64,000 nucleotides of DNA from Candidatus Latescibacterota bacterium. Its GTDB lineage: Bacteria; Latescibacterota; UBA2968. How positions within the stretch are numbered: the first letter of the stretch is position 1; each line of letters starts with the position of its first letter. A program made the position numbers and the translations under genes. The DNA lies in contig OZ242195.1 of NCBI GenBank assembly GCA_965205975.1, forward strand, positions 4,096,001 to 4,160,000. Reading direction: 5' to 3'. Positions 11,527 through 44,000 of this stretch are shown piece by piece. The notes under the pieces are model-generated. The model saw only the letters and a program-made list of their open reading frames with translations. It had not been told where the DNA came from and did not search any database.

Positions 11527-11645
11527 GTGTTCATTTTCGGACACTACTGTATCAAAATCGGACACTTATTGAACTGCGCTCATGACACAAATTTTCATAA
11601 CTACTTGTAAAATATAGAGAATAAGTTTTTGGCACAGGAATTGCT
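11527..11645 (+). promoter_or_regulatory. Sigma54 promoter with tandem upstream activator-like sites
   Basis: TGGCAC-AGGAA-TTGCT at 11630-11645; GTGTTCATTTTCGGACAC (11527) and TGTATCAAAATCGGACAC (11548) upstream. Confidence 0.8.
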
Positions 11646-31026: not shown

Positions 31027-32218
31027 ACTACCACTTGAAAAACCGGACCGCGAACTCAGCGCCTCAATGGAGCGCATGTACGATATATGGAACCCCCATG
31101 AAGATCGCGGCAATGAATTCTTCAGCAACTTCAAATACTCCCCCCTCGCGGGATTCTCACGAGAACCCAACGTCTCCCGCCGCGACCCATCCAAAATCCT
31201 CCGCATTGACGGCACCTATTACGTCTGGTACACATGCCGGCGCACACAAGGCCCGCCCGTCGGACACGAAAACGCCACCGACGAAATTCCCTCTGTCGAT
31301 TGGGACCTCGCAGACATCTGGTATGCCACCAGCGAAGACGGCTTTCACTGGGAAGAACGGGGACCAGCCGCCACCCGCCCACCAAAAGGCGAATTTGGCT
31401 GGCGCTCAAACTGCACCCCCGACATCCTCGTCTGGAAAAACAAATACTACCTCTACCACCAGGCATACAGCGAAGTCATTCAGGGCGGCGACTCGTGCCC
31501 CGTCACCATCGCCATCGCCGACTCTCCCCAGGGCCCCTGGACGCGACTGGGCAAACCCATTGTGGAACCCGGCGAACCCGACGACTGGGATTGCAACTGC
31601 ATACACGACCCATTCCCCCTCATCTACAAAGGCAAAATCCACATGTATTACAAAGGCTCGCCCGGCCAAAAACGCGGCGGCGCAAACATCATCCGCGCTC
31701 AGGGCGTTGCCATAGCCGACCATCCGGAAGGACCATACAAAAAATCATCGCTAAACCCCGTCCTCAACTCCGGTCACGAAACCTGTCTGTGGCCCTACAA
31801 AGAAGGCATCGCCGCAATCGTCAGCCTGGACGGACCCGAAAAAAACACCGTACAATACGCGCATGATGGCCTCCATTTCGAAATGAAATCCCTGCTCCAG
31901 GTACCCCCCGTCGCGCCCGGACCCTTTGTGCCCGACGCATTTGCCGACAACGGCGACGGACGCGGCATCACCTGGGGATTGTGCCACATCAACCCGGATG
32001 GCGGGGGCAGCATGAGCGAATCCATCCTCGCCCGATTCGACTGCGACCTCAGCCGCGACACAGACCGCCCCCTCTTCAAAAACAACAACCTGCGCTTTGA
32101 CGAACCCACCTACTTCCAGCGCGTCCTCAAATTGCCCGAATACCTCCAAAAGCAAATCCTCAGAGAACAGAATGATACTGATCAAAATACCATCGGAACC
32201 TTCAAGGAGCCATCATGA
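31004..32218 (+). CDS. Glycoside hydrolase, GH117-like five-bladed beta-propeller
   Basis: RRDPSKI..YYVWYT, WDLADIWYATSEDG, HDP, YYKG and NSGHET motifs. Confidence 0.8.
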   Translation: MQTPFPAKLPLEKPDRELSASMERMYDIWNPHEDRGNEFFSNFKYSPLAGFSREPNVSRRDPSKILRIDGTYYVWYTCRRTQGPPVGHENATDEIPSVDWDLADIWYATSEDGFHWEERGPAATRPPKGEFGWRSNCTPDILVWKNKYYLYHQAYSEVIQGGDSCPVTIAIADSPQGPWTRLGKPIVEPGEPDDWDCNCIHDPFPLIYKGKIHMYYKGSPGQKRGGANIIRAQGVAIADHPEGPYKKSSLNPVLNSGHETCLWPYKEGIAAIVSLDGPEKNTVQYAHDGLHFEMKSLLQVPPVAPGPFVPDAFADNGDGRGITWGLCHINPDGGGSMSESILARFDCDLSRDTDRPLFKNNNLRFDEPTYFQRVLKLPEYLQKQILREQNDTDQNTIGTFKEPS

Positions 32219-33291
32219 AAACGATCTACCGTTTAACACTCGTGCAAGGGATATGCTGTTTCCTGCTCATCGGCGGACTGCTCGCCCCACCCGCAGAGGC
32301 AGTTAAATTTCGCACCGAAGCAGGTCAACTCCAGCAATCAAAATTCGTCATCGCCATACCGGAGTCCTGGAACGGAAAACTCCTAATGCTGGCGCACGGC
32401 CATCGCTCCGAAAATGCGCCCCTGAGCGCCGATTTTCGCACAGAGTCTCCCACGTACCAGCATTTGCTTGCCGATGGCTGGATGATCGCATCTACCAGCT
32501 ACCGCCGCAACGGAGCGATCATCGTCGATGCGGTAGCGGACATCGAACTGCTACGCCAGCACATTGCCCAAACTTATGGCGCGCCCAAACGTCTGCTTGT
32601 ACAGGGCAGCTCAATGGGCGGTGCGATCGTGACACTGATCGCCGAAACCGCACCCGAAGGTTATGACGGCTTGCTCGCGTTGGGGGCGGCACTGCAAGTG
32701 CGAGATGCAGAGCAACCCCACGAATGGCGTTATACCCCGCGTCTCCCGTTGCTCTTCGTCAGTAACCAGAGTGAAGTGGAGGGACCCCAGGCGTATATCC
32801 AGAAAGCGGCAAAGGCACCGAATGTGCCAGTGTTCTGGTCTGTGGCACGCGACGGACATGTGAACCTCAGAGAGATCGAACGGGAAACCGCGTTGCGCGC
32901 GCTCGACGCCTATCTGGACACCGGCACGATTGAACGAGACAAAGACGCGACCATCGCTCCGAATCATGTGTCGTCTGCGGAATTTGTGGAAGGTGGGGCT
33001 TACACAAAGATAGAGAGCATCTCCTCGACCTACGGCAACATCAACACCGAATTTATCGAAGGCGACCTGCAGCAACTTGGCATCTCTCCCAAAACCCGTT
33101 TTCAGGTCAGCTATGGGGAGCAGACGTTCACAGTGTTGCTTGCCACCACCTATGGAGACGTACCGCGGGGAGAGTGGGTTGCATTCCTGACAGCGGAAGG
33201 TCGCTTGAGGATTGCTCGCAACTACGAAAACGCCTCAAAGACACTTGGGTGTAAGGAGGGCGACAAAATCTTCATCGCGCCCGCCGAATAA
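32215..33291 (+). CDS. Secreted alpha/beta hydrolase fused to a SAM hydroxide adenosyltransferase (DUF62) C-terminal-like domain
   Basis: Signal peptide and GSSMGG elbow; C-terminal YGNINT...TYGDVPRGE.VAF...G.L.IARN..NASKTLG...GD. Confidence 0.7.
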   Translation: MKTIYRLTLVQGICCFLLIGGLLAPPAEAVKFRTEAGQLQQSKFVIAIPESWNGKLLMLAHGHRSENAPLSADFRTESPTYQHLLADGWMIASTSYRRNGAIIVDAVADIELLRQHIAQTYGAPKRLLVQGSSMGGAIVTLIAETAPEGYDGLLALGAALQVRDAEQPHEWRYTPRLPLLFVSNQSEVEGPQAYIQKAAKAPNVPVFWSVARDGHVNLREIERETALRALDAYLDTGTIERDKDATIAPNHVSSAEFVEGGAYTKIESISSTYGNINTEFIEGDLQQLGISPKTRFQVSYGEQTFTVLLATTYGDVPRGEWVAFLTAEGRLRIARNYENASKTLGCKEGDKIFIAPAE

Positions 33292-33313
33292 ACCTTATAA
33301 AAGGAGTTTCTAC

Positions 33314-34540
33314 ATGGAAATGCTGTATCTATTGATCGCATTTGTAATTGGAGGCGTGGTTGGGGGCGTGATTATGAGCCTGCGAAAGAATGGGGATGAG
33401 GCTTTGCGAATTGAGTTGGCGAAGTTGCAGAGCGAGAAGGACGCCCAGGCGGACAAAGAAGAGTGGATCAAAAAAGCGGAAGAAAAATTGCGCGAGGCTT
33501 TTGACTCGCTGGCGGGCAAGTCATTGCGTCACAATGCCGATGCATTTTTGAAACAGGCGCAAACGCAAATGACCGGCGTACTAAATGAGGTCCGCGGCGA
33601 TTGGAAGACGCAGAAATCGGAAATGCAAAACTTGATGACGCCAGTGCGAGAGAATTTGGACAAACTCGACGGACATGTGCGGTTGCTGGAGGAAAAACGA
33701 GAAGGCGCGTATCGAGCACTCGACCAGCAATTAAAGGAACTCATGGATATGCAGCACAAACTTCAAACCACGACCGTCACATTATCTCAGGCACTCAAAT
33801 CATCTTCTGTGCGCGGACAATGGGGCGAGATTCAGTTGCGTCGCGTGGTGGAACTGGCGGGCATGGAACGATGGGTAGATTTTGAGGAACAGGTATCAGG
33901 TGACAGTGGCCGTCCGGATATGGTTGTGCATTTGCCTGGTGGGGGAGCGTTGCCAGTAGATGCCAAAACACCTATGACATCTTATTTGAACGCCGCGGAA
34001 GCTGATGATGATAAAGCATACAAAAACTATATGAGAGCACATGCTCAAGCAGTGCGCGGTCGGGTGCGCGAATTGGGGCAAAAAGCCTACTGGTCGCAGT
34101 TTGAAAAGACGCCAGAGTTTGTCGTCATGTTTGTGCCTGTTGAAGCCAGTGTTGCCGCGGCGTTTGAGGAAGAGCCAGGTTTGTTGGACGATGCCTTGCA
34201 AAGCAAAGTGCTGATTACAACGCCCGTGACACTGTTGGCGCTCTTGAAGGCTGTTGCTTACGGCTGGCAACAACAGGCGGTGTCTGAAAACGCGCGTCAA
34301 ATAGCCGCCGCGGGCAAAGAGTTATACCAGCGCATAACGCCATTTTTTGCCCACCTTAATACCCTGGGAAGTCGTATCGATCAGACCGTTAAGAGTTATA
34401 ATCAGTCCATCGGGTCACTGGAACACAGGGTTTTGCCCTCTGTGCAGCGGCTTCAGGCGTTGGACGTTGGAGACAACGAACTCAATGCGCCCCAGACCAT
34501 TGATCAACGCACCCGGTCATTGCCCGAAGCGTTAGAGTAG
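33314..34540 (+). CDS. rmuC: DNA recombination protein RmuC
   Basis: RGQWGEIQL, RPDMVVHLPG, VDAKTP and FVVMFVP motifs; AAGGAG RBS. Confidence 0.92.
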   Translation: MEMLYLLIAFVIGGVVGGVIMSLRKNGDEALRIELAKLQSEKDAQADKEEWIKKAEEKLREAFDSLAGKSLRHNADAFLKQAQTQMTGVLNEVRGDWKTQKSEMQNLMTPVRENLDKLDGHVRLLEEKREGAYRALDQQLKELMDMQHKLQTTTVTLSQALKSSSVRGQWGEIQLRRVVELAGMERWVDFEEQVSGDSGRPDMVVHLPGGGALPVDAKTPMTSYLNAAEADDDKAYKNYMRAHAQAVRGRVRELGQKAYWSQFEKTPEFVVMFVPVEASVAAAFEEEPGLLDDALQSKVLITTPVTLLALLKAVAYGWQQQAVSENARQIAAAGKELYQRITPFFAHLNTLGSRIDQTVKSYNQSIGSLEHRVLPSVQRLQALDVGDNELNAPQTIDQRTRSLPEALE

Positions 34541-34634
34541 CCGAAGCGCAACATCAGAGTGAAACAGACGATATTAGGGCCTCTACAACAGGATGGTTCA
34601 AATTATGGGTTACAGATCCCTTGTCCCATCCGAT

Positions 34635-36557
34635 TTAGTATTTAAAAATCTCATTACTGCCCGAGAGGCTGTTAAGAGTAACCCTTTTATCCACTGGGTT
34701 CTTAATACCCTCAACTCGCCATCGCTCTAACGCAAAATTCACATATCTTTCCTCGTGTAGATCGAGAAATCTCGTATAGACTAAGTACCAATATTTCCAT
34801 GTCTTATTCTTCCGCTGTTCGTTGTTTTCTATCTCTTCCTGCGCTTGATCGAATAAATCTATCAACTCTCGGATCATCCGCGTATCCGGAACTTTTTCTG
34901 TGTTTCTAAAGTACTCCGTAACTTTTTCTTCGGGTGTTTTTTTTCCCATGCTTAGGTTTATAGATTCTTTGAGCAATATAAAATTTCCAAGGCGCCTTTT
35001 ATTTCTGTCAAGATTACCTTTGTCATTAATTCTCTTTGTATCTGCAACAGCCCAGATGTGTTCTAAGTGATAAAAGTCATTGGGATGTTGAGGATCTCTC
35101 TCAGCCAGATATTGCTCTAATTTTTCCTCTCTTCCCTCCTTGCGTTCCAAATTTCCCTCATAACTTGCCAGAAAGTATTTCAGCCATGACCAGTGATAGT
35201 AGTCTCCTGATTCATCTATATCTAAAGTCAGATTTTTGATCAGGTTTTTGTCTTTGGCATTATTATTTACAAATTCGCGCAATCGTTCTTCCAGCCATGA
35301 TGCATTGATCAGCACATCATCACGAGTTTTTGAATGATGGTTATAGAAATCGTGAGCCAACTTAAAAAGTTCTCCCTGTCCAGAATCAGTCCGGGAGGCA
35401 ATACCTGTTCCGTAGAATCGAAAGTTGAGTTTTTCAACCAATTCCAATAAAGGTACTCTCGTTGAGGCCTCAGTCTCGCGGTTAAATATTGCAAGAATCA
35501 ATGGCAACACGGATGCCAAGACAGGTTGATGCCCAAGACGAGTCAGGCATTCCTTTTCTTTATCTTCAGTTACTCCTTCTCTTGTGTAAAGTTTCTGATA
35601 CGTAAGTGCTGTTTTTTCGAGAAATGCGACGAAATCTTCGAGCCGCTTCCTGTCATTCCCTGTGGTGGGGAACTGATCTTTCAGGTTGTCATAGACGTTG
35701 AAGCTTTTGTTTTTAGTAGCGTCCTGAAATACGATCCAGCAGTTACGAAGGAATCCATTTTCGTCATCGTTGGATGTGTGATTGCAGCGATTAAGGTGTT
35801 CTAATATTTCTGACCACTTGTCATCCACAGCCTTTTTTAAGTCCTGAATGTCATTCTTTTCCGAATAGTACATAAGATAATTTTTCACTTTTTCCAATTC
35901 GCTCAGTGGTTTCCCCCGGTTATTGATAACTTCGAACATGATGCCTATTTCTCTCGTGTTATTAGGGGCGTACATTAGGAATCCGAGTTGGTTTGTAATA
36001 TATTCATAGATTTTAGAAAGAGATATTCCATTTTTAGGTTGAAGCCATTTCTTAAACTGATCAAATGCATCAACAATGTTTTGATGTCCCTTATTTTTAA
36101 CTTTTCCACTGGAGTCTGAGTCAGGTTCCTTAACCATATCCCAAAATAGGTTATCTTGTTCATTTGATAAGGCAAATTTGCGACAGGTGTTTCCGTGTTC
36201 GCTCCCTTCTTCAAGAAAGTAACGTCTCAAATCCTCTGGTTCCGGAATATTCCTTCGTTCACAGACATGAGCCATGCAGGACAAGAGAATTATCAGGGTT
36301 GCCAGTCGCTGTTGACCATCTACTATTTCGAAGTGGTCATTATCCTGAATTGAGTCTTTCTTGACTGCAACCAATGTGCCAGTATAGTGGCTATATCCCC
36401 CGTCCATTCCATATTCTATATCTTTGATTAAGTCTTTGCGCTGGTCTTCCTCCCATGAGTATCCGCGTTGATAGGCAGGGATACTGAATGATCTGTTTCC
36501 CTCAGCGAAAACCTGCTTCAATGTGAGTAATTCAAGACGTTGTTCAATGGTGAACAT
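34635..36557 (-). CDS. GmrSD-like protein (DUF262 plus DUF1524/HNH), putative modification-dependent restriction nuclease
   Basis: IPAYQRGYSW, DGQQRL and FEVINNRG (DUF262); LEHIW...LGNFILL (DUF1524); AT-rich. Confidence 0.85.
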   Translation of the reverse strand: MFTIEQRLELLTLKQVFAEGNRSFSIPAYQRGYSWEEDQRKDLIKDIEYGMDGGYSHYTGTLVAVKKDSIQDNDHFEIVDGQQRLATLIILLSCMAHVCERRNIPEPEDLRRYFLEEGSEHGNTCRKFALSNEQDNLFWDMVKEPDSDSSGKVKNKGHQNIVDAFDQFKKWLQPKNGISLSKIYEYITNQLGFLMYAPNNTREIGIMFEVINNRGKPLSELEKVKNYLMYYSEKNDIQDLKKAVDDKWSEILEHLNRCNHTSNDDENGFLRNCWIVFQDATKNKSFNVYDNLKDQFPTTGNDRKRLEDFVAFLEKTALTYQKLYTREGVTEDKEKECLTRLGHQPVLASVLPLILAIFNRETEASTRVPLLELVEKLNFRFYGTGIASRTDSGQGELFKLAHDFYNHHSKTRDDVLINASWLEERLREFVNNNAKDKNLIKNLTLDIDESGDYYHWSWLKYFLASYEGNLERKEGREEKLEQYLAERDPQHPNDFYHLEHIWAVADTKRINDKGNLDRNKRRLGNFILLKESINLSMGKKTPEEKVTEYFRNTEKVPDTRMIRELIDLFDQAQEEIENNEQRKNKTWKYWYLVYTRFLDLHEERYVNFALERWRVEGIKNPVDKRVTLNSLSGSNEIFKY

Positions 36558-36752
36558 GTAAAGCCTCCCGTGTATTGGTCAACTTAAAAGATAGAGCAAC
36601 AAATGTTCTCGGATAGCCAAAAAAAGGCCGATCTTCCTTATCAATATGAACAGATTCCAATGTATAAAAAATAAATTACAGATGTCAAGATCAATGGTTC
36701 GGACACTTTTTGATAGATTCTCCATTAGATAAAAACCTGAGTTTCTATAATA

Positions 36753-36779
36753 CAAAAGGGGATTATATACAATAGTGCC
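36753..36779 (+). repeat. Left arm of a 27-bp inverted repeat
   Basis: CAAAAGGGGATTATATACAATAGTGCC; 24/27 identical to the reverse complement of 37514-37540. Confidence 0.85.
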
Positions 36780-36792
36780 CAAAAATTACCCA

Positions 36793-37494
36793 TCACTCTC
36801 GTATATACCGCAGAAACACACTTCCGTCCCTATCATCTAACCACTCCTCAAGACTTGTCCCATTCAAAACACTTACAGGAACATCTCTCCATTCCTTCTT
36901 GCTAAAATTCCTGTAACCCATATACTCCAACATACCAGACGCAGGATAATGAACATTTAAAATCTCTACACTACCATCATAATCCTCATCAAAAATGAAC
37001 GGACGACCACTAACACGACTAAAAATATCTCCCGTAATACGCCCCAACCTCGCAGACCCCATATAACGCTTTTCATAGAGAGAATCCATATATATTGTAT
37101 ATGCGCGGCTCTTGCCACTCAACGCACCACGCGGAACAATCAAAACAGAATCTTGATCAGACTCTACACCCAAGTCTGCGACAACACGACCAAACACCTC
37201 TAAATCCATGACCTCAGGCTTCCCCTGATGAACAGTTCCTTTATTGACAATAAAAAAACTTTCCTCTCTCCTAACCCTCCCTTCCCTATCTTTCCAACGA
37301 CCCTTCAGGGAGATAATAAAAAAACTTGACCACAACTTTAACTTTGCCAACAACTTCGCATGTCGCTTTCTCTGCTCCCGACGGGGAATATTGCCTCCCG
37401 TAATATATCTCGAAATCATCGCACAATCATACGTCTCATTGTGTTCCACAATCCGAGATAAACCCTCCAACATCAAACCAGAACGACTATCCAT
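36793..37494 (-). CDS. Hypothetical protein with phage SAM-lyase-like motifs (paralogue B)
   Basis: CAMISRY..EQRKRHAKLLAKL..GRWKD..REESFFI..LGVESDQDSVLI; alignable by eye with 37549-38592. Confidence 0.55.
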   Translation of the reverse strand: MDSRSGLMLEGLSRIVEHNETYDCAMISRYITGGNIPRREQRKRHAKLLAKLKLWSSFFIISLKGRWKDREGRVRREESFFIVNKGTVHQGKPEVMDLEVFGRVVADLGVESDQDSVLIVPRGALSGKSRAYTIYMDSLYEKRYMGSARLGRITGDIFSRVSGRPFIFDEDYDGSVEILNVHYPASGMLEYMGYRNFSKKEWRDVPVSVLNGTSLEEWLDDRDGSVFLRYIRE

Positions 37495-37513
37495 AATATA
37501 ACCCCCAATAATT

Positions 37514-37540
37514 GGCACTATTTTATATAATCTCCTCTTG
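37514..37540 (+). repeat. Right arm of the 27-bp inverted repeat
   Basis: GGCACTATTTTATATAATCTCCTCTTG. Confidence 0.85.
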
Positions 37541-37548
37541 GAAGCATC

Positions 37549-38592
37549 TCAATCGAACAGCAGATAAGAGTCTGTTTGCGCCTGGTATAAGGGTTTCAGT
37601 TCGTGTATATACAGGCCAACGTGCTCAGAAATAATCCACAGATCATTTGGGCGATCCAGCCTGCCACTTAGAAACCGCACCGTGTAAACGTCATCATCCT
37701 GGTAATACGTAATATAGCAAGAAGATGCACCATTCGTTGCGCTCGGTGCCATTGGTAACAACATCCAGAAGTTGCCATACCAATCTACACCATAGCGTTC
37801 ACCTTTTGCACCCATCAGGCGATACAGGTTATCCCGCCCGCCAAATCCATTCATAGCCGTTTCTATAAAGTCATTTATATCGTCGTCACAGGCAACATAC
37901 TCGGGAATCTCCTGAGATGGGATGTAAAACTCACGACGCGGTTCTCTTTTAGCCTGAAGAGAAAAACCGGATAAACAAATTTCTGTTTCTTCCCAGTCTT
38001 CTTGTCCCAGTCGGTGAAAAAAATCAAGACCCATATTATTTGCGGCGTCCCTATGTTGTGTGACAGCCTTTATTTTTTTTATTGAATCGGCGTCTCTGCC
38101 ACCAACGCGAGCAAAAAAGGCTTTAATCTCCCTGTTTATAAGCGTCCGACCAAAGAACTTTTTCTCCTTATTTAACAATCGCAAAAAATTGTGCTCGCAC
38201 GTATTGGTACGGGCATAATATGCCCGACTCTTACCCCTACCTTGCAGCGCACCTTTCGGAATAATCAGAACAGCATCTTGTTCAAAACTCTCCCCAAAAG
38301 AAATGATATTCTCGGCAAACTGTTCACTGCCATGATAATTGAGAACAAAAAAAGTTCTCTCCGAAGAATCCTGCCCACCATCCCTGAATTGACCCAAAAC
38401 CGATATCGCGCGGTAACGCCTGCTCATCAGTTTGTATAACAAATTGGTGCTTCGCTGTAAGTTTTCTCTTTTGGTATATCTCTTGCCCTGCCCACAATCT
38501 CGTGCTGTGCGATATGCCGAAATGAACGCACAATCATGTTGGTTGTCGTACGTGAGAAAGCTATATAGCTCTGATTCCATAAAAAAATCCAT
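37549..38592 (-). CDS. Two-domain protein: N-terminal SAM-lyase-like domain (paralogue A) plus a C-terminal mobile-element-type domain
   Basis: CAFISAYR..ENLQRSTNLLYKL..GQFRDG..SERTFFV..FGESFEQDAVLI; GAAAGGA RBS before ATG 38592. Confidence 0.58.
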   Translation of the reverse strand: MDFFMESELYSFLTYDNQHDCAFISAYRTARDCGQGKRYTKRENLQRSTNLLYKLMSRRYRAISVLGQFRDGGQDSSERTFFVLNYHGSEQFAENIISFGESFEQDAVLIIPKGALQGRGKSRAYYARTNTCEHNFLRLLNKEKKFFGRTLINREIKAFFARVGGRDADSIKKIKAVTQHRDAANNMGLDFFHRLGQEDWEETEICLSGFSLQAKREPRREFYIPSQEIPEYVACDDDINDFIETAMNGFGGRDNLYRLMGAKGERYGVDWYGNFWMLLPMAPSATNGASSCYITYYQDDDVYTVRFLSGRLDRPNDLWIISEHVGLYIHELKPLYQAQTDSYLLFD

Positions 38593-38625
38593 GATCTGTC
38601 CTTTCATAATTGATTCCGTCCCTGA

Positions 38626-39432
38626 TTATGCCTGCTCTGGCGTCATCATCACGGCAATGTCTTCTGGCAATTTCACATCATATTTCTCCTCAAATTCCTC
38701 AACATTTTTGTAATTCTCACAAAATCTCCTGATAATATCCATACCCTTGCTCTTGACAATTGTCAGATCTGCTCTGGCGTTATACCATCTGCCCATGCGT
38801 AACCACGTTTCACCGCGGTAATAATAGGCCACAGTGTAATCCGGGTATAATTCTATGGCCTTGTTAAAATCTTCAATAGCACAGTCATACGCGCATTTAT
38901 CCCTGTAAATTTTGCCACGATAGAAATAGGGGTCGGGATTATCCGGATCCAGTTCCATAACCGCGCTGTGGTCTTCCAGAGCCAGGGCACTCTCACCTTT
39001 AAATTCGTAACAAAAACCACGCAGATAATAGTATATTTGGTCGTATGGGTTTAGTTCTATGGCTTTGGTGAAGTCCTCAATACCCTGGTCAAGGTCGCCT
39101 TCATCACTGTAAGCATTGCCGCGATTGAAATAGGCGTCAGGATCATCCGGGGCTATTTCCATGGCTTTATTGAAGTCTTCTAGAGCCAAGTCATCCTCGC
39201 CTTTATATCTATAAGTCTTGCCACGATTGTTATAGGCTTCCACATAATCCGGGTTCAGTTCTATGGCCTTATTGAAGTCCTCAATACCCCGGTCATAATC
39301 GCCTTTATCGCTGTAAACACTGCCGCGATTGTTATAGACTGTCGCATCAGTCGGGTTCAGTTCTATAACTTTGGTCAGGTCTTCAATGGCAGGGCCATTC
39401 TCGTCTCGATCAAAAATATCTAAAATATCCAT
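38626..39432 (-). CDS. Tetratricopeptide repeat protein
   Basis: About six 34-aa repeats of the AYNNRG..Y...GD.D.AIEDFNKAIELNP type; RBS before ATG 39432. Confidence 0.92.
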   Translation of the reverse strand: MDILDIFDRDENGPAIEDLTKVIELNPTDATVYNNRGSVYSDKGDYDRGIEDFNKAIELNPDYVEAYNNRGKTYRYKGEDDLALEDFNKAMEIAPDDPDAYFNRGNAYSDEGDLDQGIEDFTKAIELNPYDQIYYYLRGFCYEFKGESALALEDHSAVMELDPDNPDPYFYRGKIYRDKCAYDCAIEDFNKAIELYPDYTVAYYYRGETWLRMGRWYNARADLTIVKSKGMDIIRRFCENYKNVEEFEEKYDVKLPEDIAVMMTPEQA

Positions 39433-39452
39433 GACTTGTCCTTTCGCAATGG

Positions 39453-42260
39453 TCAGAAACCTGTCGGGTTGTTGCCGGGTTTTATGCGGCATTCCTCGGT
39501 GAGTGCCTGTGAAATTTGTTCGGGATCGTCCATGAAGCCCAGGACCTCTGCGCGCTTCCGCACGTTGGCAAAGTCCGCGGGGGTGAGTTTGGTCAGCGCG
39601 AGTGCCGAAGACGGTGCTTTGCAGTTGAAAAACAATTCAAAGGCGCGGTTAATGCGCGGTTGGTCCAAAAAGTAAAACTGGATGCGAAATAGGAAGCGGC
39701 GTGCGGATGCCTCGTCGAGGCTGTCTCCCCGGTTCGTGGTGCAGGCAAATGGGAGGGGATGCCGCTCCATCTGGCTGAGCAATTCGTTGACCATGCTCAC
39801 TTCCCAACTGCGTTGGGCAGATTGACGGTTCATCAGAAGCGAATCCACTTCGTCGAAGATCAGAAATGCGTTCTTCTCAAGTGCCGCGGCAAAAGCAGAG
39901 GCAATCTGTTCCTCGGTTCCTCCGACGAATGCGTTCAAAAGATCGGATGCCCGTTTGCATAACACATCCATCCCCATCTGCTCGGCGATGTAGTGTGCAA
40001 AAGCCGTTTTGCCCGTACCGGGAGGACCACACAAGCAGAGCGAGAACTGGCGCGTATCAAGCCCGATGATCCGCTCGACCAGTGTCGGGAGATCCTTATC
40101 TGCGTGGATAAGGGCCGGGTCGTATTGTGCAATGGGCAGCATGTCGGGAGAACGCACGCCATAGCGCAGTTTTTCTTTTTGATCGATGTTGCGCTTGATC
40201 GTCTCACTGAGTTTGTGTTTGGTCGCACAGGTGGAATGATCTCGCACGAGAACAGCCTGTTTGGTCGCTAAAGTGACCTGGCGAGGGGTCACTTTGTTTT
40301 TATGTGCCAGTTCTTCGGCCAGTTGTCTGGTCTCGCTGTCTGACATACCCGCCTGGCGCAGGATATCCGCATAAACGGTTTCTCGGCTGCGAACAGGTAT
40401 GTGGCGAAACTCAATGGCGTATAGAATGCGGTCGATGAAGAACGACTTAAACATGCGGTAGAACTCAATTGAGTTACACGTCCAGATAATGGGCACCGGG
40501 TTCGCTTCGACAATGCGGTTCAGCCAGTGTTTTTGCGGCTGGCGAAAGTCTTCCATCTCATCAAAGAGAATCGCGGCATTTGGTTCGTCTGCCAAGGCTT
40601 CGAGGGCATAATCCAATGTCTCTGTGCGGCCTGCACTCAGGCGTGCCTGTGGACCGATTTCATTTTCCCCGATGGCGTATAAACGCGCGCCGACCTCGCC
40701 GCAAAGGGTGCGCGCAAACTCGGTTTTGCCAGTGCCCGGCGGTCCGTACAGGAGGATATTGATCCCCTTCTCTTTCTTCTCTATCACTGCGGCAAGGGTA
40801 TCTCGCACAGCGTCCGCATCTTGTCCGAGGTGTGAAAATGCCGCCCACGGAACCTTTGCCTCGATGGGTGGTCCCAGGCGCGGACGGGCACTGTGTGTGG
40901 CGATGGTGCGTTCCAGCCGCTCGCAGAAGTGGTAAATATCACGCTCGCCACCACCGATGAGGCGGGTGTTTTCGATAGCTTGTGCCAGAAGACCAGGAGG
41001 ACACTCGAGTTGATCGACCAGACGCCGCGCGCATGCGACCGCATCAATGCCCTCGATATTGCTTTTTTCCAACATCTGTTGCAGAATTGCGGTTTGGCGG
41101 GTCGGGCTGTGAGCTGTGAAGGTGAGGATATAGGTGAAACGCCGCAACATGCTTTCGTCTAAGTGATCCAGACGATTGGCTGTATAGACCACGGGCACGG
41201 GAGTATTTTCCAGCAGGCGGTGGTTCATCAGGCGGGTGCCCCGGATGGAATCCAGAACGTCCTCGGCCTCGTCGCACAAGATCGCGGCATCGGGAACGGA
41301 TCGTAAGAGAACTTGAGCCAGGTGCAACTGGTTGCGGCGTCTGGTGCCAGCCTTGGCCGCGCTATCGAAAGGTTCCTGATCTTCCCGGTTCGGCTCGCCG
41401 ATGGAAAAGAGGGATGTGCCGGCCGCCTGCGATAGGGTTTTGGCAAATTCGGTTTTCCCGGTGCCTGCCCGCCCAACCAGCAGGATATTGACCCCCGGCG
41501 TAGATAGGTCTTTGTGCCGCCTTTGCACAACTGCGCGAAGCAGGCGCACGGCCTCATCCCGATCCTCGAGGTATGCGAAGTCGCTCAGGTGCAGCGTGGC
41601 TTCGCAGGGCTGACCGACCAGACGCGCCACCAATTCATCCAGATCCCGTACGGGCGGATGCCATACGCGGGAAAAATATTTATGTGTGTAGTCGGTGGGA
41701 TCAGTGCGATTAGAGCGCAGATCTTCCAGGTCAGTAATACCCGCATCGGCCAGTTCGCGGAACGCATCCTTGACTTCTTCGCACGCGCAACCCAACAAGA
41801 TCGCAGTCGCTGTGAAATGGTCATGGATATCAGAGAACTCATCCCACAGGTTTTGGGTTAGAGAATCACAGTCATAACAGCATCTCAGGGTGAGTAGGGC
41901 GTGAGCTACGGATCCTAAAGAAAAACGCTGAACAATGAGACGGGTTGCTATCTCTTCAGGGGAAGGTGCGGGCTGCTGTTGTGTTTTCTCTTTAAACGTT
42001 TTTACCGCGTAGTCGAAGAATTGGTTTTGCTCTGGCTGATCGTCTTCCCGTTTTCTCTTCCTGTCAAATATCCTGTCGTACTCCTGTAGGAGAGAAGGGT
42101 CCAGTGTTTCCAGAGGATCATTATAGTGTCCGATCCAGTCGTGTATTGCCTTTTGCACCCGTCGATCCCTCTTTACTTTGCCAAGTGCGTTCAGCATGTA
42201 GATGCGGTTCATGTACAGGCTGTATTCATTGATGTATAGACTATCTTCATTGTCAATCAT
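39453..42260 (-). CDS. AAA+ ATPase with three tandem AAA modules
   Basis: Walker A at 41451-41474, 40722-40745 and 40005-40028; Walker B ILCDE, ILFDE and LIFDE; AAAGGAG RBS before ATG 42260. Confidence 0.88.
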   Translation of the reverse strand: MIDNEDSLYINEYSLYMNRIYMLNALGKVKRDRRVQKAIHDWIGHYNDPLETLDPSLLQEYDRIFDRKRKREDDQPEQNQFFDYAVKTFKEKTQQQPAPSPEEIATRLIVQRFSLGSVAHALLTLRCCYDCDSLTQNLWDEFSDIHDHFTATAILLGCACEEVKDAFRELADAGITDLEDLRSNRTDPTDYTHKYFSRVWHPPVRDLDELVARLVGQPCEATLHLSDFAYLEDRDEAVRLLRAVVQRRHKDLSTPGVNILLVGRAGTGKTEFAKTLSQAAGTSLFSIGEPNREDQEPFDSAAKAGTRRRNQLHLAQVLLRSVPDAAILCDEAEDVLDSIRGTRLMNHRLLENTPVPVVYTANRLDHLDESMLRRFTYILTFTAHSPTRQTAILQQMLEKSNIEGIDAVACARRLVDQLECPPGLLAQAIENTRLIGGGERDIYHFCERLERTIATHSARPRLGPPIEAKVPWAAFSHLGQDADAVRDTLAAVIEKKEKGINILLYGPPGTGKTEFARTLCGEVGARLYAIGENEIGPQARLSAGRTETLDYALEALADEPNAAILFDEMEDFRQPQKHWLNRIVEANPVPIIWTCNSIEFYRMFKSFFIDRILYAIEFRHIPVRSRETVYADILRQAGMSDSETRQLAEELAHKNKVTPRQVTLATKQAVLVRDHSTCATKHKLSETIKRNIDQKEKLRYGVRSPDMLPIAQYDPALIHADKDLPTLVERIIGLDTRQFSLCLCGPPGTGKTAFAHYIAEQMGMDVLCKRASDLLNAFVGGTEEQIASAFAAALEKNAFLIFDEVDSLLMNRQSAQRSWEVSMVNELLSQMERHPLPFACTTNRGDSLDEASARRFLFRIQFYFLDQPRINRAFELFFNCKAPSSALALTKLTPADFANVRKRAEVLGFMDDPEQISQALTEECRIKPGNNPTGF

Positions 42261-42443
42261 GGGTAGAATCTCCTTTCGTGTTCTGCGCCTCATATGCCTT
42301 ATAGCGATGCGACTCCTACGACGGTATTTCATGGGCAAAACCTCCCTTCGCTCTAATTCGATTTTTCTCCTTTATCTTTTATGATCTGACCTTACGCAAT
42401 CAACCGCCCCCGCTGTGTTTTTTGTGTTACAAATGAAAATTGA

Positions 42444-42459
42444 AGCAAATACCGTGCCA
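42444..42459 (-). promoter_or_regulatory. Consensus sigma54 promoter upstream of the AAA operon
   Basis: Minus strand TGGCAC-GGTAT-TTGCT. Confidence 0.7.
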
Positions 42460-42498
42460 AAGTTTGGACAATAGCTCCCTTTGTGTTCTTATTTTTTT

Positions 42499-42540
42499 GC
42501 TTTTCTCTACTTTTCTTTGCTTTTCTCTGCTTTTCTCTGT
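42499..42540 (+). repeat. 10-bp tandem repeat (consensus GCTTTTCTCT, about 4 units)
   Basis: gcttttctct acttttcttt gcttttctct gcttttctct, in the intergenic region. Confidence 0.65.
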
Positions 42541-42596
42541 ATCCTCTATGGTTTGTGTGGTTGCTTTTTATTTTTAATTCCCAACCGGAGACCCCA

Positions 42597-44000
42597 ATGC
42601 CCAACCCCAACATCGTCTATATCTTCTTCGACGACCTCGGTTACGGAGACATCCGCTACCTCAATCCCGAATCCAAAATCCAAACCCCGAATATCGACCG
42701 CCTGTCCGCTGAAGGCATGTGCTTCACCGATGTCCACTCGTGCTCCGCCGTGTGCTCCCCCTCGCGCTACGGCGTCTTAACCGGACGCTATTGCTGGCGC
42801 ACCCGATTGCAAAACGGCGTCCTCAACGGATACTCAGAACCCCTCATCGAACCCGACCGCCTGACCGTCGCATCCCTGCTCAAACAACACGGATATCACA
42901 CCGCTTGCATCGGCAAATGGCATGTGGGATTAAACTGGACGCGCAAAAAAGGCGTCCAGAACCTCGAAAATTACAGACTGGGATGGGATCGAGGCGAAGC
43001 CATAGACTTCACCCAACCATTTACCGACGGACCGTGCGACCTCGGATTCGACTACTTTTACGGCATCTCCGCATCCCTGGACATGCCGCCTTATGTCTAT
43101 CTCGAAAACAACCGCACAATCTGTGAACCAACAGCCCGTGCTCCCAAGGGCCTCTTTGGACGCGAGGGACACGCTGCGCCGGGCCTCAAACCCGAACACG
43201 TCATCCCGGACCTCACAAAAAAAGCGGTCTCCTTCATCGAAGAAACTGCAACAGACAAACACCCCTTTTTCCTCTACTATCCCGTAACCGGACCGCACAC
43301 ACCCATCGCGCCAAACAAAGCATTCACAGACAAAAGCCAGGCCGGCAAATACGGCGACTTCGTCGTCGAATGCGACTGGGCAGTGGGGCAAATCATGGAC
43401 GCTGTTGAAAAAGCCGGCGCCACCGATAACACCCTCTTTATCGTCACCAGCGACAACGGACCCGAACGCTTTATGCACGCGCGAAAACAAGAATACAATC
43501 ACTACAGTGCCTATCACTTCCGCGGCTGCAAACGCGACAACTGGGAAGGCGGGCATCGCATCCCCTTTATCGCCCGCTGGCCCGAAAAAGTCGCCGCCGG
43601 ATCCTTCAGCGACGAAATCGTATGTCTCACAGACCTCATCGCAACAGCCGCCGACATTGTCGGCCATACCCTTCCCGAAAATACCGGCGAAGACAGTTGC
43701 AGCATCTTACCCATCCTGACGAGCCAGAACGCGACATCCATCCGCGAAGCCACCGTGCATCACTCATCCAAAGGCGAATTTGCCATCCGCCAGGGCAAAT
43801 GGAAATTGCTCCTCCACCAAAGCTCCGGCGGCAATGATTATCCCGACGACCCAATAGATGATGCTCCCGGCCAACTCTACGACCTGGAAACCGGCTACCG
43901 AGAACGCGAAAACCTCTACGCGCAACACCCCGAAATCGTATCCCGATTGACCGACCTGCTCAACCAGTACAAAACGAGGGGACGCAGTGTCCCCGCATAA
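42597..44000 (+). CDS. Formylglycine-dependent sulfatase (arylsulfatase-like)
   Basis: DDLGYGD, CSPSRYGVLTG, GKWH and TSDNG motifs; GGAG RBS. Confidence 0.93.
   Translation: MPNPNIVYIFFDDLGYGDIRYLNPESKIQTPNIDRLSAEGMCFTDVHSCSAVCSPSRYGVLTGRYCWRTRLQNGVLNGYSEPLIEPDRLTVASLLKQHGYHTACIGKWHVGLNWTRKKGVQNLENYRLGWDRGEAIDFTQPFTDGPCDLGFDYFYGISASLDMPPYVYLENNRTICEPTARAPKGLFGREGHAAPGLKPEHVIPDLTKKAVSFIEETATDKHPFFLYYPVTGPHTPIAPNKAFTDKSQAGKYGDFVVECDWAVGQIMDAVEKAGATDNTLFIVTSDNGPERFMHARKQEYNHYSAYHFRGCKRDNWEGGHRIPFIARWPEKVAAGSFSDEIVCLTDLIATAADIVGHTLPENTGEDSCSILPILTSQNATSIREATVHHSSKGEFAIRQGKWKLLLHQSSGGNDYPDDPIDDAPGQLYDLETGYRERENLYAQHPEIVSRLTDLLNQYKTRGRSVPA

Follow-up and report, generated by a model that had tools for sequence, protein, structure and literature searches.

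The 64,000-nucleotide stretch analysed here, referred to as the window (Candidatus Latescibacterota bacterium, GenBank assembly GCA_965205975.1, contig OZ242195.1, positions 4,096,001-4,160,000), was found to carry five co-oriented genes on the minus strand. In the order of transcription they encode a triple AAA+ ATPase, a TPR protein, two proteins resembling S-adenosylmethionine (SAM) lyases, here designated L1 and L2, and a GmrSD-family nuclease (Table 1; all coordinates are those of the window). The gaps between the first four genes are 20, 18-33 and 30-54 bp, depending on the start codon chosen, and gmrSD follows L2 after 235 bp. An initial annotation had drawn attention to the order and tight spacing of these genes, to an AT-rich distal part and to a sigma54 promoter consensus upstream, and all of these hold. 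The G+C content of gmrSD, L2, L1 and the TPR gene is 0.40-0.44 against 0.54-0.58 in four flanking genes, the ATPase gene being host-like at 0.545, and the sigma54 site is a perfect TGGCAC-N5-TTGCT, identical in both orthologous islands found in related genomes (G012 and G015). The domain calls made at the same time were borne out by Pfam, in the case of L2 through its homology to L1.

Table 1 Features of the insertion, from its left to its right end. Positions are those of the 64-kb window; aa, amino acids; nt, nucleotides.
Feature	Position	Strand	Remarks
Whole insertion	33300..42581		~9.3 kb; alpha/beta-hydrolase gene on the left, sulfatase gene on the right; without integrase
RmuC gene	33314..34540	+	convergent; part of the insertion in the present genome only
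Fused GmrSD-family protein (DUF262-DUF1524)	34635..36557	-	640 aa; DGQQR, FxxxN, EH and LGN motifs
Sigma70-like site before gmrSD	36659..36688	-	10/12 match, 18-nt spacer
L2	36793..37494	-	single-domain, divergent; alternative start GTG 37518; seen in the present genome only
L1, linker and C-terminal alpha/beta domain	37549..37977	-	~115 aa; no counterpart in the aligned viral rows
L1, N-terminal SAM-lyase (PII-like) domain	37978..38592	-	~205 aa; G67, F69, E78, Q105, D106; whole L1 reading frame 37549..38607
Stand-alone TPR protein	38626..39432	-	268 aa; TPR_1 166 bits (Pfam)
Triple AAA+ ATPase	39453..42338	-	961 aa from TTG; likelier start ATG 42332; three AAA stretches, 148 bits (Pfam)
Sigma54 -24/-12 consensus	42444..42459	-	faces the ATPase gene, ~110 nt before ATG 42332
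A-rich 10-bp direct repeats	42490..42540	-	precede the sigma54 site; present in G012 and G015 as well

Comparison with 20 relatives from the same genus indicated that the whole block is an insertion. The flanks abut in 11 of them, leaving the hydrolase gene (32215-33291) directly against the sulfatase gene (from 42597), an island occupies the site in two, and in the other seven one or both flanks have no close match. Since the flanks abut at the empty sites, the rmuC gene and the sigma54 site belong to the insertion; of the two flanks first named, rmuC and a sulfatase gene, only the latter is therefore a true flank. The empty joint (33299-42581) was also found on a contig of run X1, and contigs of this run match positions 34495-42635 with zero differences; as X1 may be the source sample, this match checks the assembly only and is not counted as independent support. 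In G015, a copy of ~40 bp of the sulfatase start is retained at the far end of the island. No integrase or transfer gene was found inside the insertion, either in the list of open reading frames or by Pfam, and the absence of phage structural and integrase genes from the block led us to reject a prophage origin for it as a whole. The left flank gene encodes an alpha/beta hydrolase fused to a SAM hydroxide adenosyltransferase C-terminal domain; it is a core gene, present at the empty sites too, so that the SAM theme there is probably a coincidence.

The content of the insertion differs between genomes. The G012 island consists of the ATPase, TPR, L1 and GmrSD genes, without L2 and without rmuC. 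The G015 island, which spans 20 kb at the same site (L205:1157-8022, L007:11425-19861), has the ATPase, TPR and L1 genes followed on the opposite strand by other defence-type genes, including HATPase, PLD-helicase and DndB-like genes and a cluster that is presumably of the phosphorothioate type, a label based on its sequences and not on a profile. Two further genes in the island are taken by us, from their sequence, to be cysteine desulfurase-like and PAPS-reductase-like. Run X5 belongs to another study; on one of its contigs (contig 13) the ATPase gene is joined to L1 and the TPR gene is cleanly missing, and on a second contig gmrSD adjoins the left flank. Neither orthologous island thus contains L2, and one of the two lacks GmrSD, while the ATPase-L1 pair is retained in all three genome islands and in one further contig. 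The ratio of non-synonymous to synonymous substitution rates (dN/dS) was 0.18-0.21 for the ATPase, 0.27-0.30 for the TPR protein, 0.20-0.27 for L1 (0.15-0.24 for its lyase domain) and 0.44 for GmrSD, the last from the single pair with G012; two flanking genes gave 0.11-0.14 and 0.02-0.04. As judged from gene content and these ratios, the stable core is the sigma54 site, the triple ATPase and L1, under purifying selection (dN/dS 0.18-0.27), and the TPR protein, L2, GmrSD and RmuC are exchangeable cassettes. The locus is thus very probably a mosaic, defence-type insertion rather than a five-part machine.

Such a machine had been proposed in the initial annotation, with the TPR protein as sensor and the ATPase as remodeller controlling two lyases that act together with GmrSD. 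The close spacing of the first four genes agrees with it, as do the presence of the ATPase, TPR and L1 genes in all three genome islands under purifying selection, the joint occurrence of L1 and GmrSD in two of the three, and a homologue of L1 fused to a TPR stub (P0006). However, all five genes were found together in one genome only, the present one; each of TPR, L2 and GmrSD is missing from related loci, the TPR gene from the X5 contig and from the sister and Desulfovibrionales loci described below; the number of TPR repeats varies, the G012 protein having two fewer; and gmrSD stands apart with a promoter-like site of its own. A single five-gene unit is accordingly improbable, and the recurrence of the genes in other genomes, by which the proposal was to be judged, was seen repeatedly for the ATPase with a lyase and nowhere else for the full set. 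The translation start and ribosome-binding regions of the TPR and L1 genes (39425-39460 and 38585-38620) are near-identical, which offers a plausible route for gain or loss of the TPR gene. The longer kin of the TPR protein are mostly TIR-TPR-TaqI_C fusions, which make up most of 93 matches; one such fusion of 874 aa (L012:6368-8992) adjoins an SMC-like ATPase.

The GmrSD protein exceeds the Pfam cut-offs for both of its domains (GmrSD_N, PF03235, 123 bits; GmrSD_C, PF07510, 27 bits), and its best PADLOC match is the single-gene HEC-06 (E 2e-48, residues 21-552). It has the same fused two-domain form as GmrSD type IV enzymes and is an ordinary member by the motifs given in PMC4619093 (this and the other publications below are cited from excerpts of their texts), except that the (E/D)H-x-x-PQ motif reads EHIWAV here; there was no sign of an obligate linkage to a lyase.

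L1 scored 32.5 bits against PF23780 (S-AdoMet_lyase), above the cut-off of 28, and L2 15.4 bits, below it. L2 is nevertheless homologous to L1 (28% over 236 aa, E 1e-19) and reached 225 bits with the profile of the subfamily, all 46 aligned members of which match PF23780 at E 0.05 or better. A structure model of L1 (predicted local distance difference test, pLDDT, 73.6) gave SAM lyase chains, those of T3 SAMase and Svi3-3, as Foldseek ranks 1-7, in agreement with the lyase fold foreseen at the outset, and was superposed on T3 SAMase (7ock_L) with Z 8.9 and a root-mean-square deviation of 3.9 over 127 residues at 13% identity. In Svi3-3, Gly56, Glu69 and Gln104 are conserved SAM-binding residues, and the site is closed by Tyr58, which packs on the sulfonium, and its partner Glu105 (PMC7877911, Guo et al.). 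When paired by motif order and secondary structure, the first three correspond to G67, E78 and Q105 of L1, which are kept in 45, 45 and 46 of the 46 rows, and L2 carries the same letters, its five positions reading G, W, E, Q and D; the equivalent of Glu105 is Asp in both proteins. L1 and L2 thus appear to be of SAM-lyase fold, as seen in the L1 model, and the SAM-binding Gly, Glu and Gln appear to be kept. For the C-terminal domain of L1 there was no usable Atlas match, and the fold matches were middling (Z up to 7.2). A sequence search of the PDB with alignments A1 and A2 returned no lyase, and the Pumilio rows among its matches were spurious.

L1 thus resembles T3 gp0.3 SAMase (7OCK, 8BB1), Svi3-3 (6ZM9, 6ZNB) and PF23780 in its ferredoxin/PII-like fold and apparent Gly/Glu/Gln triad. 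It differs from the phage SAM lyases in that L1 and L2 belong to a phrog_30877-like subfamily of ~205 aa with an extra subdomain, to which L1 adds its C-terminal domain, and in that the locus is chromosomal, has no prophage genes around it and is linked to an ATPase of WYL-associated type.

This ATPase has Walker A motifs at residues 289, 532 and 771, and each of the three modules also contains the Walker B residues DE, the Asn of sensor 1 and, further downstream, an Arg in the arginine finger region. It matches phrog_10401, a WYL-linked tandem-AAA family, at E 2.6e-78, with 38% identity to double-AAA relatives. Its N-terminal part is helical and winged-helix-like (model pLDDT 84.8), though the winged-helix matches were weak (Z 4.4-6.3) and Foldseek gave none at E 0.001. 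The last AAA module found its best match, in PADLOC and NCBIfam alike, in IetAS, which consists of the IetA ATPase and a subtilase, but the score was 90 bits against a cut-off of 510, one module was covered, and no protease gene is present among the open reading frames of the insertion.

Among 168 genomes of the phylum, 18 genomes from two families hold homologues of the triple type, at 21 places in all; with shorter, double-type matches a third family is reached and 39 of the 168 genomes are included. Twenty of the 21 places were read, namely the three island copies and 17 others, two of the latter ending at contig ends. The three island ATPases form a clade of their own (support 100) and have no WYL gene beside them, whereas an HTH-WYL-WCX gene lies upstream at all 17 non-island loci. 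The genes downstream of the WYL-AAA pair change from locus to locus and include DUF2779, PD-(D/E)XK nucleases, NucS, peptidase M48 and one GmrSD; a lyase occurs in two of the 17 and a homologue of the TPR protein in none. The sigma54 motif, at a different distance, is present in six of 15 usable upstream regions of the non-island loci. On plasmids, a double-AAA relative was found in 17 records, and in the five loci read WYL is adjacent in four and within ~4 kb in the fifth, with no lyase annotated in any; ADP-ribosylglycohydrolase, RtcB, PD-(D/E)XK and UvrD genes lie near the plasmid ATPase genes.

Repressors of this WYL type are sensors of single-stranded DNA and regulate genes of immunity (PMC11662680, PMC13622015). 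The present locus shares its ATPase family with WYL-regulated loci of the BrxR and CapW type that carry phrog_10401, and has sister loci with HTH-WYL-WCX upstream and variable nuclease and toxin-antitoxin cargo downstream, but it has three AAA modules instead of two, no WYL gene beside them and a sigma54 site instead. As an observation in its own right, a WYL regulator and tandem-AAA pair heads variable cargo in Latescibacterota and on Proteobacterial plasmids (L010:7459-11376, L034-L047, L163-L167); a short inverted repeat, situated where the WYL gene ends and ahead of the ATPase gene, is a possible operator, and DUF2779 genes follow the pair at eight loci (L034-L039, L044, L045), being far commoner there than the lyase. 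Literature searches returned no name for this module, and the excerpts of PMC13069673 gave nothing on it. The widespread occurrence of the WYL-linked tandem-AAA ATPase at the head of variable cargo is a usable side result.

A lyase of the subfamily was found in five of the 168 genomes, always on the same strand as a triple ATPase gene and 0.7-4.4 kb downstream of it. A scan of one genome per species, made with a single short pattern that may miss members, yielded six lyase loci: four with gene orders already counted, one T4-type viral fragment and one Desulfovibrionales contig. The last has the consecutive genes WYL, a double AAA of the same family, SLOG, lyase and PD-(D/E)XK. A tree of 198 rows computed with FastTree, midpoint-rooted and with weak deep branches, unites the Latescibacterota lyases in one clade that contains no IMG/VR member (support 97) and places the Desulfovibrionales lyase apart from it, among viral rows; in this tree P0002-P0011 are labelled bacterial by similarity. 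This separate branching suggests two separate captures into the same kind of locus. A metagenome scan gave 33 lyase loci at 30-40% identity, none of which had AAA, TPR, GmrSD or WYL homologues, many of the contigs being short.

The lyase subfamily itself is viral, with 68 IMG/VR loci, 11 phage records and 2884 representatives at E 0.001. Four viral loci were checked, and the neighbours include T4-type single-stranded DNA-binding, late-promoter, exonuclease and thymidylate synthase genes; the excerpts of PMC9239159 describe T4-like genes in a phage carrying a relative of the lyase and hold nothing on the WYL-AAA module. On this comparison the bacterial lyases descend from a family of T4-type phages, the lyase of the core having once been captured from such a phage by the lineage, and the bacterial clade has since diversified, gained the C-terminal domain and come under purifying selection at a fixed chromosomal site.

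Many viral members begin with a short basic propeptide ending in L/I-x-E (L054-L121, L124-L156, L211:3986-4564). L/I-x-E stands directly before the domain in 55 of 61 full single-domain members, and a loose pattern for the full propeptide is matched by 29 of the 61 against 25 of 586 other open reading frames; in these counts many rows are near-copies, and 137 of the 586 controls have some L/I-x-E within the first 25 residues. T4 gp21 cleaves at L/I-x-E, and internal proteins are directed to the head by short propeptides (PMC9026906, PMC10229621). The viral relatives resemble in this respect the T4 internal head proteins IPI, IPII and IPIII; the likeness applies to the phage ancestors, and the orthologues of L1 keep at most a remnant of the propeptide. 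The T4-type phage lyases may thus be packaged and injected with the DNA, and the ancestor of the bacterial lyases was probably an injected counter-defence enzyme. A search of literature and data for virion proteomics of a cultured carrier phage found none; an example of a cultured carrier is MW805361 (gp48). Tandem two-domain members of the subfamily also exist (P0013, P0014, P0016). A viral subfamily with a propeptide suggesting injection alongside DNA is a second usable side result.

A lyase of this fold outside phages has been described in type III CRISPR loci, and the initial annotation had mentioned degradation of the type III signal SAM-AMP. The nearest described cases are the Clostridium botulinum CRISPR SAM-AMP lyase and the candidate AcrIIIB4, in which a bacterially encoded member shares with L1 the fold and the Glu/Gln pair, Glu71 and Gln108 being common to SAM lyase and SAM-AMP lyase; SAM-AMP lyases do not cut SAM (PMC12255297, Chi et al.). 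A role of L1 in trans, serving or opposing type III CRISPR through SAM-AMP, would suit these likenesses and the type III-B locus of the host genome. It is made very improbable by the partner CorA (PF01544), found in none of the five lyase genomes in a search whose control was positive in 13 of 14 cases, by Cas10, present in two of the five and missing in three, and by the CARF-type genes of the local type III-B locus, which point to cyclic oligoadenylate; nor does the insertion contain cas genes.

No named system fits the locus, as had been supposed initially: none was returned by PADLOC 2.0 (2023 library) or NCBIfam, L1 and L2 matching no PADLOC model and the ATPase and TPR protein giving partial domain matches only. 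In literature searches, which left subscription papers mostly outside, neither this set of genes nor a host defence acting by depletion of SAM was found described.

The reading preferred here, which we hold tentatively and rate somewhat short of probable, is that L1 is a domesticated phage SAM lyase serving as inducible, SAM-depleting defence cargo. Expression of the operon would await the opening of the sigma54 promoter by an activator or, at the sister loci, the sensing of single-stranded DNA by the WYL regulator. The lyase would then form the usual homotrimer, with active sites at the interfaces, and split SAM into methylthioadenosine and homoserine lactone, and the drop in SAM would halt methylation, so that the infected cell stalls or the phage is denied DNA methylation. 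SAM-independent weapons nearby would keep working, namely GmrSD here and, in G015, the presumed phosphorothioate-type cluster. The ATPase is predicted to be a protein remodeller for a stress regulon, with or without contact with the lyase. Sigma54 promoters require an activator, and the host genome has 14 N6-methylase matches, eight of them strong; with so many methylases a lyase expressed without regulation would harm the cell, so that tight control is to be expected, in keeping with a promoter of this type. Catalysis on SAM is the more secure part of the prediction and seems rather likely; a net protective role for the host is a tentative suggestion, somewhat doubtful as it stands. The broadest form of the idea is rather unlikely: on two or more occasions, bacteria would have taken a SAM lyase that phages deliver in their virions and put it to host use at a tandem-AAA locus controlled by WYL or sigma54. 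There the former counter-defence enzyme would act as an inducible immune effector that depletes SAM, the metabolite sacrificed, and leaves SAM-independent nucleases working.

Several points weigh against defence by SAM depletion. Activity, expression and benefit of the locus are predicted from the sequence and a model, the Foldseek E-values for L1 are only 0.009-0.04, and the residues were paired by motif order and secondary structure. The equivalent of Tyr58, which is Tyr in 32 of the 46 rows, is Phe in L1 and Trp in L2, so that the aromatic ring is kept and the hydroxyl lost; in Svi3-3 the Y58F change destabilised the trimer (PMC7877911). The sister lyase of G084 is broken at its N-terminus and the sister ATPase of G025 has an internal stop. 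The five Latescibacterota cases are kin and represent two placements, not five independent events; 15 of the 17 non-island triple-AAA loci and all five plasmid loci read are without a lyase, and a plasmid search with a viral lyase as query gave no match, so that the link between ATPase and lyase may reflect a general cargo hotspot. Finally, destruction of SAM would disarm the type I systems of the host as well (bioRxiv 2023.02.27.530186).

Some of these points suit a cargo that is non-catalytic or drifting, in which the lyases, without turning SAM over, would bind it or a partner (SAM synthase, for example), or would be mere passengers of a hotspot, L2 perhaps being in decay. T3 SAMase acts also by binding MetK (bioRxiv 2023.02.27.530186), and to the replaced Tyr, the broken G084 copy and the patchy presence in five of 168 genomes may be added L2, which falls below the Pfam cut-off and has Arg where 44 of the 46 rows carry Ala. 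The kept Gly, Glu and Gln of both proteins, the low dN/dS of the L1 lyase domain and the full length of 13 of the 15 members of the sister cluster argue the other way and make a non-catalytic or drifting cargo unlikely.

The main rival is a captured anti-restriction cargo, whose lyase would retain its role in the phage and, when induced, weaken SAM-dependent restriction, which would allow incoming DNA, or the island itself, to become established. This is the function shown for T3 SAMase (PMC7877911; bioRxiv 2023.02.27.530186), which both cleaves SAM and inhibits MetK and so shuts down BREX and type I restriction (bioRxiv 2023.02.27.530186). The viral nature of the lyase family, the many SAM-dependent methylases of the host and the plasmid records of the ATPase family are in keeping with it. 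An insertion without integrase or transfer gene, a lyase without plasmid match, neighbours that are nucleases and other defence genes, and a bacterial clade that has diversified and is selected at a fixed chromosomal site are not, and on balance this alternative lies on the unlikely side. Known SAM lyases are phage counter-defence proteins, the bacterial case described being that of the type III CRISPR loci (PMC12255297). A chromosomal, selected and CRISPR-independent lyase would, if defence by SAM depletion is true, add SAM to the metabolites sacrificed in defence; if the anti-restriction role is true, hosts would deliberately switch off their own restriction.

With regard to the promoters, the window contains three exact sigma54 sites, one of them within gmrSD, so that a single site alone is weak evidence; genome-wide there are 41 against ~8.6 expected, and the host genome encodes one RpoN and has 22 matches to the activator domain. 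The longer words of the A-rich repeats occur once in the genome, and the repeats are a possible bending or activator region. Sigma70-like matches, 16 found against 11.9 expected, are not above chance by themselves, but the -35 and -10 hexamers of the site before gmrSD are kept in G012.

The genome also encodes a CARF (NE0113)-sigma54 activator (L168:1900-3561), which precedes the type III-B locus. Three sigma54 promoters near this locus (G000:C1:3481730, 3482911 and 3496261), one of them at the CRISPR leader, have a paired upstream inverted repeat in common; control of the ATPase gene by this activator was considered and rejected, as the shared repeat was not found upstream of the ATPase gene. 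Two other sigma54 promoters, at 11630-11645 of the window and at G000:C1:4084758, have an identical upstream element of ~40 bp and probably belong to the regulon of one activator.

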